Shown here: piece after piece, positions 51,507 through 57,741 of the stretch
Position numbering within the stretch: the stretch's first letter is position 1
Layout of the letters: the number at the start of each line of letters is the position of its first letter
DNA from: a virus
IMG/VR virus record: IMGVR_UViG_3300014202_001521
Location: 130,931 to 194,930 of that record
Direction: 5' to 3' (one strand)
Length of the DNA: 64,000 bases
Translations under genes and position numbers: made by a program
The notes under the pieces: model-generated
The model's input: the letters and a program-made list of their open reading frames with translations, nothing else
The model's database searches: none
What the model was told of the DNA's origin: nothing

Positions 51507-51859
51507 TATCGCTTTAAGGTGGTTTTCCGTGTCTTCAGAACTTGCTTAGCTTCCTTCTTAAGCAACTTGGCTATTGTGCGGCTGGTTTCTTTCTGTATTC
51601 TCTCCAGAAGAACACGCACTTGATTGTGCCAGTCTTCTTGTGCAAAAGGGCAAGAGAAAGTATCATGTGCATGACCTTTACTCTTGCCATGAGCTACAGA
51701 CATAGCTTCTACCCAGCCCGTGGCTCCCATACAGCCTCTTTTTACATCCATTTTTTCTTTACAGACACGACAAAACATTTCCTTTTCTTTGCCAGGTTCG
51801 GGCGTAAAATGATCCCAACCTGCATGGAAATGCTTGGTCTTTTCTTTTGGCTTACTCAT
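51485..51859 (-). CDS. hypothetical zinc-binding protein
   Basis: CRVC, HD.F.CP, WH.Q. Confidence 0.65.
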   Translation of the reverse strand: MSKPKEKTKHFHAGWDHFTPEPGKEKEMFCRVCKEKMDVKRGCMGATGWVEAMSVAHGKSKGHAHDTFSCPFAQEDWHNQVRVLLERIQKETSRTIAKLLKKEAKQVLKTRKTTLKRYWRGAFL

Positions 51860-52890
51860 CCTAAAAACCTATGTAAGAGTTTGTGGAAATGGTAAATACC
51901 TTCTTCCCTTGGGTTATGATAGCGACCTACGCTATATCGACTACTATGCAATCCCTTTTGGACCCGCTCACAAACCTTTATGTCTTCTTCCTGAATTTGA
52001 TCCGATACAATCTTACTGTCGTGCTGTTGGTGCTTATCAAACTCAGGGGTAAAGTAAAAATCAAACGTAACCTTACACTCTTCTGGACCTACAGGCTCTA
52101 CCCAATTCGTGTCCATTGCACCTTCTGATACATTAATCATGAAGTTAGGGAATAGCCAAACATAGTAGGCCATCCCCTTGCGAACACCATGCATTTCCCC
52201 GTCATTGTCTAATGGAACTGTCTGACTTATGATGAACTCTTCCAGAGTCGTCTTATATTTAGAATAATCAGCAACAGCAGCCAAAGCTTTATGAGCATAA
52301 GGAATATGATAACCACCATCGACATAATTATCTATAAACACTTTCCAGTTGCATTTTATATGGAAGACTTCTCTCCATTTCCACTCAAACATGTCAAGCG
52401 GTGGCAACACAAGTCCCTTGGTGAACTTCTCCCAAGAGACACGATTTCTTTCGTTGGGATTGACGAAAATCCAAGGCCCAAGAGTACGGACCTCAAAAGC
52501 AGGCAAATTGTTCGCTTTTTTATCCAGTTTTTGCCAACCATCAGGCTCCGTACAACCGAGCAGATCACCATTTAAGTTGTAAGTCCAACCGTGGTAAGGA
52601 CATATGAATTTGTTCATATGTCCACAACCCTCGGCTAGCACAGTGCCCCGATGACGACAGACGTTAGAGAAAGCGGAAAATCCATCTTCATTCTTTACAA
52701 CTACAACAGGCTCATCGCCTATGGTGGCTGTAAAGAATGATCCTACATGTGGAAGTTGTTCTTTCCTGCCAACGTAATTCCACATGCTCCTAAAGAGCAT
52801 ATGTTTTTCATCGGTTAGAATCCTTGGATCATGATACCAATATGATTCAATGGATTCTGCTGTAGCTAGCGGGAGATTCGGGTTGAACAT
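51856..52890 (-). CDS. Rieske non-heme iron oxygenase, choline-monooxygenase-like
   Basis: NVCRHRG...CPYHGW.Y (Rieske). NWKVFIDNYVDGGYHIPYAH and ED...CE.VQKGL.S (mononuclear Fe). Confidence 0.9.
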   Translation of the reverse strand: MFNPNLPLATAESIESYWYHDPRILTDEKHMLFRSMWNYVGRKEQLPHVGSFFTATIGDEPVVVVKNEDGFSAFSNVCRHRGTVLAEGCGHMNKFICPYHGWTYNLNGDLLGCTEPDGWQKLDKKANNLPAFEVRTLGPWIFVNPNERNRVSWEKFTKGLVLPPLDMFEWKWREVFHIKCNWKVFIDNYVDGGYHIPYAHKALAAVADYSKYKTTLEEFIISQTVPLDNDGEMHGVRKGMAYYVWLFPNFMINVSEGAMDTNWVEPVGPEECKVTFDFYFTPEFDKHQQHDSKIVSDQIQEEDIKVCERVQKGLHSSRYSVGRYHNPREEGIYHFHKLLHRFLG

Positions 52891-52914: not shown

Positions 52915-53241
52915 CTATTCTGTAGGACTGCTCTTTTTTCTACCATATGTCTTTCCACTTTCCCTATAGGACTGGTGTGGAGTCTTGCCGTCGCAGAAGT
53001 TGTGCCAATACACATTGACAGGTTCTTCTTCAAGTTGATCGTCAAACTTCCTAACTTCAGCATACCAATTGTAGAAGTCCTTTTCCACTTTTTCTAAGAA
53101 GTCGGCAATTGTTCTTAGTTCGGCTGGGAAATACCAGCCGTCTAGCTGTGTGCTACCACAGCCGATCTTCGCGTATTGCTTAATTTCAGCAATCTCTGGA
53201 TAACGTTTTGCAAACAATTCTAGTTGCATGATTAAACCCAA
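52915..53241 (-). CDS. hypothetical protein
   Basis: Coupled ORF. Confidence 0.55.
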   Translation of the reverse strand: MGLIMQLELFAKRYPEIAEIKQYAKIGCGSTQLDGWYFPAELRTIADFLEKVEKDFYNWYAEVRKFDDQLEEEPVNVYWHNFCDGKTPHQSYRESGKTYGRKKSSPTE

Positions 53242-54128
53242 TACTTGTTAAGCCACTCGATAGTGTCGCCAATCGGATAGTCCATACCTATTTGTGCAAT
53301 GGACGACAAATCCTCAAAATTGTCCATCGGTCCATTGATTACTGGCTCCATACGATGATAACGTTCCCCTAACAGGAAATTCGTTATATAGTTTACTACC
53401 ATTGTATCACGCTCTGTAATCATATGAAAAACAGACCGTGACCACATGAAATAACCCCATTGGACAGTCTTTTGCTCAATGTAAATGTCCCTGATAGAGC
53501 CAATCGACAAAACTACTATTTCATCCTGTTTAGGACGAGGTTCTGTGTTCCTTTTATCCTGCGTTTGTGCCACCGCACATAATGCTGGATTATTCGCAAT
53601 CAATGCTCCGTCAACATACTTTTCATATGTTGGGAAGAAAACTGGCGCGGCTGACGTAGCCATCGCCAAGTCTACCAGTTTAGCATCTTTGTCGGAATCT
53701 TCACCCTCAAAATTGTGAAATATTTTAGCTCGCCAACGCCGATGGCTTGGAGCTTCATCATCCAGACAAAAAGTAGGTATAACTACCTTCTTTTGTAGCT
53801 CCCCAAGTTTAATTGGGCCATATAAGCTACGCAGAAACACCTTGAACTTACTGTTGTCGTATTTCGGACAAACGCCAGCATAGAAACCTAAGAGTCTAGC
53901 TGGGTTAGTATTAAATGCTAATGGAATGCCCTTAATGAAATTCTGATCTACCGAGTCTATGTCATGTCCCATCGCAAAGCCAAGGCCCAACACACCGCCA
54001 ATTGACGTTCCAGCAAACAAATCGACGCTCTGAAGAAGTGTTGGAAACTTTTTTATAATCCTTTTAAGGATCATAAGGTCTGCGTAGCCATGCATTCCAC
54101 CGCCGTCAATAGAGAGGATTTTGTACAT
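53232..54128 (-). CDS. patatin-like phospholipase
   Basis: ILSIDGGG, AGTSIGG, SAAP.FFP, VDGAL.ANNP. Confidence 0.92.
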   Translation of the reverse strand: MYKILSIDGGGMHGYADLMILKRIIKKFPTLLQSVDLFAGTSIGGVLGLGFAMGHDIDSVDQNFIKGIPLAFNTNPARLLGFYAGVCPKYDNSKFKVFLRSLYGPIKLGELQKKVVIPTFCLDDEAPSHRRWRAKIFHNFEGEDSDKDAKLVDLAMATSAAPVFFPTYEKYVDGALIANNPALCAVAQTQDKRNTEPRPKQDEIVVLSIGSIRDIYIEQKTVQWGYFMWSRSVFHMITERDTMVVNYITNFLLGERYHRMEPVINGPMDNFEDLSSIAQIGMDYPIGDTIEWLNKYWV

Positions 54129-55065
54129 TCGTTATATACTCGCTTTTCATTTTCCAAATATGTTTCCAGGTTATCTTATGGGCAATTTGGTACACAATAT
54201 GATTGTTAATACCAAGGCGATCCGCAATTTGTTTGTTAGTTTCTTCACCTATCATCAAAGCATCCCGAACGTCTAAAGCCGTTTCCAAAGTGATTACAGC
54301 CCTGCCATTGTCTTCCCCTCTTGGCTGCCGTTTATATTTGCCCAACAGTTTAGAGCAAGCCTTTCTATCCTTAGCAATCTTAAAATGCTCTGGATTAAAG
54401 CACGCTCGCATATTGCAAGTATGGAAAATAAACTTGCTACTGTCAAGTGGTAAATCCAACCAGATATACGCAGCCACATTCTGAACTAGATAATGCCTTC
54501 TGCTATAGGGTCTAGGAAGAGATAAGTAGCCGTAACCCCTCATATTCCAGCCCCCGACCCACATCCAACAACCTGTATTTGGGTCTATTTCTCTTTTCTT
54601 TAATAGACGCTTTTCCAAGTATTCTTTGGATGTAAGATGTATTCTAACTGGCCTGGGTTCACCATATGCTGCACTTAGATATTCGCCATTGACAATAGGA
54701 CCACGATTGTCCTTATCAACAAGGTTTAAATCTTTAGCCCAACGCTTGACAGTCTTAATATCAGAGCCAAGAGCTTTCTCTAAGGTCGTCCAGTTTGGAC
54801 GATCTTTATATCTGTGCTTGAGCATAGCCTCCACCAGTATTTCTACTGGTGGAGGTGGTACTTTAAAGGAATTGGTTTTACAAGTGGGTGAGCAGTAAAT
54901 CTGCGTAGCGGTTCTAGGCTTCTTAACCCGCTTTTCGCATACCTTGCATTTAAAAGGCGGAATCGTTCTTCTTGCCTTATACTTGCAACTATTACTGCAA
55001 TACTTCTGTCCCTTATACCGTTTGTTCTCTTCAAAAAACTTATTGCAGAAAGGACAGTCAGGCAT
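54106..55065 (-). CDS. HNH (His-Me finger) homing-endonuclease-like protein with N-terminal Zn fingers
   Basis: YCS..C repeats, GCWMW.G....GYG, HTCN.RAC.NP.H, RGEDNG, C-terminal HTH. Confidence 0.8.
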   Translation of the reverse strand: MPDCPFCNKFFEENKRYKGQKYCSNSCKYKARRTIPPFKCKVCEKRVKKPRTATQIYCSPTCKTNSFKVPPPPVEILVEAMLKHRYKDRPNWTTLEKALGSDIKTVKRWAKDLNLVDKDNRGPIVNGEYLSAAYGEPRPVRIHLTSKEYLEKRLLKKREIDPNTGCWMWVGGWNMRGYGYLSLPRPYSRRHYLVQNVAAYIWLDLPLDSSKFIFHTCNMRACFNPEHFKIAKDRKACSKLLGKYKRQPRGEDNGRAVITLETALDVRDALMIGEETNKQIADRLGINNHIVYQIAHKITWKHIWKMKSEYITNVQNPLY

Positions 55066-55076
55066 GGCTATGTTCC

Positions 55077-55919
55077 TTATAGCTTCTTTTTTCGTGGTCT
55101 GCCGCGTGGTTTCTTTTCCTTAGTCGCTGGTGGCTCTGTCGTAACAGTAGGAACATCACTGGTTGTGAGTTCCTCGATTACATCATACTTAGGGGACTCA
55201 GTACGCAAGGAGGCATTCAAAGACATAATAGACGGAGACATTGAAGTGCCTTCGTCAGCCAACTTCTTCTCATACGCCCTATAACGAGCAGAACCGCCCG
55301 ATGCGTGAGCATAGGAGCGAACCGCCAAGTGAGCTTCATCAAAGTTCTGGAGCTTCAGAAGCGGCGTGTCCATAAGCTCTGAGATAGCCGCCCAAAACTT
55401 GTTAGCTGCGGATTGGCCTGGATTATAAAGACACTGTAATGGGTAAACATTAATACCCATTTCCTGCAAGTCTTTGAGTTCCTTCTTCCACTCCAACTTA
55501 TCCGTGTTTTGCGGGTAATCCTTCTCATGTGGCTCAGCATCGCCAATCATAACAAGAACACCACGATTCTTCTTATCAACGGTCCAGCCTAGCGTCTTAG
55601 CTAGATTAAGAGCCAATTCATAGCATTCAGGCGCATCGCCACCGCTTGTATTCGGGGTATTGCGAATGAAACTATACACCTTCTTCTCATCATCAGTCAA
55701 CTTCTGAATGTTATAGCAATTCTTGCCATCACAGTAATCGCCGTGAGAGATAAACCCGATCTTTAGACCAGGGATATCCTTAAATAGTTCTTCGCAAGTC
55801 TTTTCTATATGCTTGCGAACGTTGGCTATGCAAGGCTGCATAGAACCAGTTGTGTCAAAGCAAAAAGCGATTTCTGTCGCTTTCGCAATGCTAGCCGTAA
55901 TATTAACTTCAGTAGACAT
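55077..55919 (-). CDS. von Willebrand factor A domain protein
   Basis: FDTTGSM, GDYCD, GGDAPECYELAL, IGDA.PH. C-terminal AT-hook-like PRGRPRKK. Confidence 0.88.
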   Translation of the reverse strand: MSTEVNITASIAKATEIAFCFDTTGSMQPCIANVRKHIEKTCEELFKDIPGLKIGFISHGDYCDGKNCYNIQKLTDDEKKVYSFIRNTPNTSGGDAPECYELALNLAKTLGWTVDKKNRGVLVMIGDAEPHEKDYPQNTDKLEWKKELKDLQEMGINVYPLQCLYNPGQSAANKFWAAISELMDTPLLKLQNFDEAHLAVRSYAHASGGSARYRAYEKKLADEGTSMSPSIMSLNASLRTESPKYDVIEELTTSDVPTVTTEPPATKEKKPRGRPRKKKL

Positions 55920-55971: not shown

Positions 55972-56178
55972 CTATGAAAGTGGGACGAAAGGGCAATAAA
56001 AATATCCCGCGTCAAAAAATTTAGGCTGGAAGTCGATTGGCAAGCCAAGATCACTTCTTAGTTTATATTTGTCACCACAATCGCAATGTGGATTGGTTGT
56101 GGTGACAAACGTGTGTCCACATCTACTGCAATACCAACACCACTGATCTTCAAGCTGCCAAAATAAAGTGTAAATCAT
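55972..56178 (-). CDS. small Zn-finger protein ending in a major-capsid-protein-like motif
   Basis: CSRCG...CDCG, then DAGYFYCPFVPL at the C-terminus. Confidence 0.65.
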   Translation of the reverse strand: MIYTLFWQLEDQWCWYCSRCGHTFVTTTNPHCDCGDKYKLRSDLGLPIDFQPKFFDAGYFYCPFVPLS

Positions 56179-56444
56179 TAATACATAATGGCAAAAGCCA
56201 TCTCTACGCTTTCGCCTTCATCATACAGCTTTCTGTAGGAATCTTTCAAGCCTACATTATTCCTAAAATCTTCCACTTCTTGAAGTGAAGGAACGTAAAC
56301 CTTATATTCGCCACGTTCGTAAGCCTCTTCATCAAACCCGATGATTGGTGCAGCTAACCATCCCTTGCCATAAACCATTAGAACATAGTCCCACCAATCA
56401 TCAAAATTACAGTCATTGTTATCATATTTTTCAGGTGTTTTCAT
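56178..56444 (-). CDS. hypothetical protein
   Basis: Coupled ORF. Confidence 0.6.
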   Translation of the reverse strand: MKTPEKYDNNDCNFDDWWDYVLMVYGKGWLAAPIIGFDEEAYERGEYKVYVPSLQEVEDFRNNVGLKDSYRKLYDEGESVEMAFAIMY

Positions 56445-57704: not shown

Positions 57705-57741
57705 AAAACTAAAGCCCTGGCTAGCCAGGGCTTTAGTTTTT
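57705..57741. terminator. bidirectional terminator (perfect palindrome)
   Basis: AAAACTAAAGCCCTGGCTAGCCAGGGCTTTAGTTTT. Confidence 0.85.

Follow-up and report, generated by a model that had tools for sequence, protein, structure and literature searches.

The mini-gene and its surroundings

The DNA analysed here (the window, 64,000 nucleotides) belongs to a huge uncultured T4-like phage whose virus record, 340,934 bases in length, is approximately 68% complete (CheckV). The window carries a small accessory gene, the mini-gene, whose product (P0001) combines a Cys/His-rich core, a variable linker and a C-terminal copy of a motif of the T4 gp23-type major capsid protein (MCP). The 68-aa ORF and its C-terminal capsid motif are as originally predicted from the sequence. 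The coordinates of the mini-gene, its parts and its neighbours are given in Table 1. The protein ends ...FFDAGYFYCPFVPLS, with a single Ser separating the motif DAGYFYCPFVPL from the stop codon.

Table 1. Features of the mini-gene region (window coordinates)
Feature	Position	Strand	Remarks
Mini-gene (P0001), 68 aa, accessory	55972..56178	-	Cys/His-rich core, variable linker, C-terminal MCP motif
Probable zinc-ribbon-like module, residues 2-35	56074..56175	-	C14, C17xxC20, H22, C32xC34
Linker, residues 36-55	56014..56073	-	Poorly conserved; 3/20 invariant
Motif DAGYFYCPFVPL, residues 56-67	55978..56013	-	Copy of own MCP 423-434 (T4 gp23 445-456)
Upstream gene, 88 aa, product uncharacterised	56178..56444	-	Stop overlaps mini-gene start; missing in G001
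vWA-domain gene, downstream	55077..55919	-	Synteny anchor; PF25106, E = 1.6e-6
HNH endonuclease gene	54106-55065	-	Between vWA and patatin genes; PHROG, E = 3e-13
Patatin-like phospholipase gene	53232-54128	-	Conserved
Rieske ring-hydroxylating oxygenase alpha-subunit gene	51856-52890	-	No match in syntenic LR756511 stretch
Second small gene, ~86 aa	49590..49850	+	Copy of MCP N-terminal residues ~22-55; tblastn to own MCP, E = 2.5e-6
Inverted repeat, perfect, 16 pairs	57705-57740		Flanked by convergent genes; probable bidirectional terminator

The ATG of the mini-gene overlaps the stop codon of the 88-aa gene (TAATG) and its codon adaptation (0.80) is similar to that of the neighbouring genes (0.75-0.81). 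A promoter and terminator scan remained close to the level of shuffled sequence (15 against 11.3 promoters) and no RNA holder is listed. The HNH gene is probably mobile, since it is absent at that place both in G001, a close relative, and in the sequenced phage LR756511.

The label 'Zn finger' for the core follows from its Cys/His pattern, and the module is probably a zinc-binding one. The Pfam zinc-ribbon matches of the mini-protein (E values of 0.01-0.2) are all under the cut-off, and an Atlas score of 0.89 against a Zn_ribbon_11 cluster serves as a lead only. A search of the phage's own genome for a paralogue of the zinc module found none. The AF2 model of the mini-protein (pLDDT 51) and a single-sequence model of the MCP (36) are too poor for placing the motif.

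The motif and the capsid protein of the phage

The phage has a single gp23-type MCP (478 aa; PF07068, E = 1e-87), encoded beyond the 64-kb window at C1:201200-202636, at a distance of 14 kb from the mini-gene. Alignment with this protein, proposed as a check of the original prediction, places the motif in the true MCP: DAGYFYCPFVPL is identical at 10 of 12 positions to residues 423-434 (DSGYFYCPYVPL). In T4 gp23 the segment aligns with D445-L456 (the mature and full-length chains are offset by 65). By chance, matches of at least 10/12 identity would be expected 2e-6 times in the six-frame genome for this 12-mer, and 9e-4 times when all 467 windows of the MCP are taken together. When the 9,650 six-frame segments of the genome are searched with a profile built from 113 MCPs, the mini-ORF scores E = 2e-4, and the best E of the reversed control is 4.9.

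The motif is not a fresh copy of the MCP gene, because seven of the ten codons for shared residues differ. The two DNA segments share 25 of 36 nucleotides and their third codon positions are saturated. The closest of 97 distinct MCP motif DNAs that we compared with the mini-gene matches it at 29/36 nucleotides.

The capsid segment D-x-G-x-(F/Y)-Y-(C/A)-P-Y-(V/I)-(P/A)-L is present in the mini-protein with Phe at the MCP-invariant Tyr. This residue, which follows CP, is Tyr in 113 of 113 MCPs and Gln, His or Asn in three other mini-ORFs; the two full-length homologues described below (P0002 and P0003) retain Tyr. The MCP set was chosen using a motif regular expression that allows Tyr, Phe or Trp at this position. 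That the motif ranks first in conservation among the MCP windows is therefore partly circular and, of the conservation figures, only the Tyr count is used here. In IMG/VR the pattern GYFYCPF(V/I)P has no match besides the mini-gene, while a pattern with Gln, His, Lys or Asn at the Tyr position occurs in three contigs, all of them mini-ORF contigs. The changed Tyr would fit a segment that has been released from capsid packing yet is still selected.

The mini-protein cannot be classed as a Gp23 capsid protein. The Pfam model PF07068 matches residues 54-67 only, at 12.3 bits (E = 0.11) against a cut-off of 24.4 bits, with no match across the HK97 fold. Compared with T4-type gp23 (PDB 5vf3, 6uzc and 8gmo), in which residues 445-456 correspond to residues 56-67 of the mini-protein, it has 12 of approximately 480 residues, no HK97 fold and Phe in place of the invariant Tyr, and its remainder is an unrelated Cys-rich module.

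Homologues and selection on the motif

A phmmer search of 1.84 billion representative sequences returned three matches, two of them full-length homologues: P0002 (98 aa, 62% identity to the mini-protein) and P0003 (85 aa, 67% identity), both unnamed singletons. A match to P0004 (4140 aa) has E = 8e-5. With the orthologue in LR756511 (see below) the family comprises four sequences, one of which is without the motif. C14, C17xxC20, H22 and C32xC34 are invariant in all four.

Invariance across P0001-P0003 is unevenly distributed: 25 of 34 positions in the Cys-rich part and 9 of 12 in the motif, against 3 of 20 in the linker (motif versus linker, Fisher p = 0.0017). This contrast between motif and linker shows that the motif has been under selection since the three homologues diverged. 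The original prediction required homologous mini-ORFs to conserve the motif. P0002 and P0003 do so and the syntenic LR756511 orthologue, which is without FYCP(F/Y)VP, does not; the resulting proportion (two of three) overstates motif conservation, as phmmer scores the motif itself and favours homologues that bear it. Since two of the three homologues conserve the motif and the phage's own MCP bears it, both chance and debris are unlikely explanations.

Other searches yielded no additional members. A word-indexed protein search with P0001 gave no match (a false negative, since P0002 and P0003 exist), and a search for longer proteins with the N-terminus of P0002 found none, which is weak evidence. 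In the locus search with P0001 the 80 loci kept of 151 were all MCP frames; with the family alignment it gave one locus in viral contigs (an MCP) and none of 189 in metagenome contigs. A pattern of motif plus stop codon matched twice (a truncated MCP frame and a chance match) and a pattern of Cys residues, gap and motif gave 2 + 34 + 30 matches, with no homologue among any of these.

Judged by these sequence comparisons, the mini-gene is a real, selected gene. The family is apparently undescribed: in the full-text literature, with subscription papers largely outside the scope of the search, we found no paper on phage capsid-fragment genes or capsid mimics.

Presence in related phages

In INPHARED (50,697 records) 590 records match the mini-protein. 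Among the matches listed, LR756511.1 is the sole near-full match; 55 of the 60 listed cover residues 55-68 only, and such motif-only matches mostly lie under annotated capsid genes. LR756511 (595 kb) has an MCP that is 92% identical and is syntenic over window 34.5-75 kb. Its orthologue of the mini-gene encodes 74 aa and lies directly upstream of the same vWA gene. It retains all Cys and His residues and PQYYDLSY, after which VRRSADR replaces FYCP(F/Y)VP; the motif was not found in the other two frames of the orthologue's DNA. Either LR756511 lost the motif or another branch gained it.

The vWA anchor gene was found in six of 32 related records. In five syntenic records (G001, G002, G003, G025 and G026, of which G002 and G025 look identical) there is no mini-gene beside it; in G008 the vWA gene lies in a different context. 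G001, with an MCP 98% identical, has neither the mini-gene nor the upstream 88-aa gene, and the mini-gene is missing from relatives whose MCPs are 92-98% identical. A family-profile search of 50 records, most of them fragments, matched the Cys-rich part only in LR756511. One contig, approximately 90% like the flanks (run X1), retains codons 1-19 of the mini-gene and has 155 unalignable letters where the mini-gene has 165 (codons 20-68). The four listed substitutions inside its mini-ORF are all synonymous, nine of the 18 differences of this piece being unlisted.

The motif is thus optional, being lost or never gained in the LR756511 orthologue while five closer syntenic records have no gene at all. 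The mini-gene itself is dispensable and fast-changing, since it is absent in syntenic relatives and altered in LR756511 and the X1 contig. In its distribution it behaves like an accessory gene engaged in an arms race, to judge from the genomes compared.

Other capsid-derived genes in the clade

A search of related phages for short ORFs with the same motif, also suggested at the outset, was productive. Related huge phages carry the MCP segment on at least four further small scaffolds, in frames of 76-157 aa. A 90-aa frame is shared as one sequence by G004, G005 and G023, and a related 157-aa frame is present in G006; in these four loci (L302-L305, in G023, G005, G006 and G004) the motif is accompanied by PLTQTPVVLDP and an acidic, Trp-ending tail. 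Frames of 76 and 89 aa carry the segment in G030 and G034. In LR756511 (L268, 588176-588304) a 100-aa frame fuses a different CxxC..CxxC finger to MCP 420-464, and this fusion arose independently of the mini-gene. Some motif-bearing scaffolds have no Cys finger.

Other parts of the MCP also occur as stand-alone genes in the same clade, both A-domain-like pieces (L269, L314 and L315) and insertion-domain-like pieces (L267, L270 and L271). The second small gene of the window (Table 1) has a start that overlaps the upstream stop. An orthologue occupies the corresponding position both in G001, where it is intact (69% identical), and in G002, where it is broken; no match was found in LR756511. Motif mini-genes belong, on this sequence record, to a design that recurs among huge phages.

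Outside the window, at C1:294383-294451 on the minus strand, there is a 23-codon frame (KGEGYMDNGYFYVPI*) that resembles the MCP segment minus three residues (profile E = 0.0025). This frame represents a remnant or, alternatively, a 10-aa peptide preceded by a Shine-Dalgarno-like run. A comparable frame of 30 codons lies at C1:293.9 kb in G003.

Comparison with known systems

In T4 gp23, A455 lies in the P-domain sheet and the substitution A455V makes the gp31 co-chaperonin unnecessary; the mutations T457A, R460C and G461S, which affect head length, lie in the P loop, just past the segment (PMC9546572). Because in T4 some of the segment forms a strand of this sheet, it may be accessible only when the MCP is unfolded.

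According to a preprint (bioRxiv 10.64898/2026.01.04.697583), Lit and CapRel detect the MCP via short motifs and, in its accessible text, are the only two systems so described; the STAND sensors Avs7, Avs8 and Avs10 wrap a broad A-domain interface of the capsid. Lit and CapRel, which had originally been named as defences triggered by capsid proteins, do not fit the motif directly. Lit is triggered by Gol, which belongs to the first quarter of gp23 (PMC3014915), and the known CapRel escape mutations are at Gp57 L114/I115 (PMC9712102). We therefore rejected the motif, which maps to gp23 445-456, as a Gol-type trigger of Lit. There is nevertheless a likeness to Gol, which is also a short, highly conserved gp23 segment read alone by a non-capsid protein. 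The differences are that Gol activates a defence from within the first quarter of gp23 (PMC3014915), whereas the segment in the mini-gene is C-terminal and has its own gene.

DSAD1 of phages phi3T and SPbeta competes with the tail tube for the sensor DSR2 and thereby blocks it (PMC11087589). The likeness concerns only the proposed logic, a small phage protein occupying the trigger site of a sensor. The action of DSAD1 is experimentally proven and directed at competition with the tail tube rather than the capsid, and DSAD1 is not described, in the accessible text of that source, as a sequence copy of its trigger. The mini-gene is small, accessory and patchy in distribution, as are DSAD1-like genes, a necessary trait that is not diagnostic. 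T4 gp24, the vertex protein and a paralogue of gp23, likewise goes back to the major capsid gene; it retains the whole fold and is part of the virion, whereas the mini-gene retains one strand and is dispensable.

Interpretation

The reading that we favour, tentatively and at somewhat less than an even chance, is that the mini-protein is a decoy that targets a host protein able to recognise this capsid segment, probably in nascent MCP. The motif would have been captured long ago by recombination from an MCP gene. Once expressed, the mini-protein would bind zinc through its core and carry the motif at a free C-terminus. A host sensor for the MCP segment would exist, and the mini-protein would occupy it without triggering it and so inhibit it. 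We prefer this reading because of the selection on the motif, the arms-race-like distribution, the reuse of the segment on unrelated scaffolds and the release of an MCP-invariant residue. It is also supported by the reading of short MCP motifs by Lit and CapRel and by the blocking of DSR2 by DSAD1 through competition, as far as these are described in the sources cited above.

Several points count against a decoy. The family is very small, with four sequences of which one is without the motif. We know of no sensor that binds this MCP segment. A 12-mer is unlikely to block the broad A-domain interface used by Avs7, Avs8 and Avs10, and a peptide resembling the trigger could switch a sensor on instead of blocking it. 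In addition, the recurrence of the segment may partly reflect its detectability, because other parts of the MCP have also been captured.

Such captures bear on another explanation, structural co-option, in which recombination added a scrap of an MCP gene to the end of a zinc-ribbon gene, and the scrap is retained because its aromatic strand or Cys gives the small fold stability; the function would then reside in the zinc module and be unrelated to capsid mimicry. Capture of MCP fragments is evidently common, since the clade holds many MCP-derived pieces (A-domain, insertion-domain and decayed), and the LR756511 orthologue has only P-x-Y-x-D-x-x-Y in addition to the core. We nevertheless consider it unlikely, if worth keeping in view: the same segment occurs on unrelated scaffolds, some without a Cys finger, and nine MCP-identical residues, including Gly, Pro and Pro, exceed generic packing needs. 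The segment might instead act on the phage's own head, pairing with nascent MCP or the chaperonin, tuning folding or head size, or bringing the zinc module to the prohead. The position of the T4 segment, which holds A455 (A455V dispenses with gp31) and abuts T457, R460 and G461 (PMC9546572), speaks for such a helper or docking tag. It becomes a distinctly doubtful proposition, however, given that the gene is absent from those relatives with 92-98%-identical MCPs, that it is surrounded by accessory genes at a distance of 14 kb from the head genes, and that P0001 ends before the P-loop residues.

Interference with competing phages was also part of the original prediction: the strand would poison the capsid folding or assembly of co-infecting T4-like phages (superinfection exclusion). 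The segment is common to T4-like phages, as the 590 INPHARED records indicate, and phage-borne assembly inhibitors exist (Tai and Tab). The proposal is weakened by the risk of self-poisoning, since the phage's own MCP bears the segment at 10/12, and it survives only as an improbable rival. Neutral recombination debris or a chance match is more improbable again and is largely refuted. Although the decayed-looking motif piece at C1:294383-294451 and similar remnants in G003 and G002 are what debris would look like, the chance expectation is at most 9e-4 and the motif has stayed conserved beside a linker that has decayed. Furthermore, the start of the gene is coupled to the upstream stop, its codon use is like that of its neighbours, and the four listed changes in the relative's contig are synonymous.

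The decoy reading can be extended to the clade, at a strength that we regard as rather unlikely. Huge T4-like phages might mine their own capsid gene, placing conserved epitopes one at a time on small scaffolds, frequently zinc-binding ones, that together form a modular library of decoys against immunity based on capsid sensing. The copied segments (MCP 423-434, 22-55 and the A domain) would then map the epitopes of undiscovered sensors.

Immune systems are commonly triggered by capsid proteins, which a phage can alter only with difficulty. A stand-alone copy of a capsid segment would let the phage evade sensing without mutating its shell, and the mini-protein would serve as a 68-residue bait for host proteins that read the segment. 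If it acts on folding or assembly instead, it would be a natural peptide modulator of the T4-type head, the strand concerned being the site of the T4 chaperonin-bypass mutation, with the head-length mutations just beyond.
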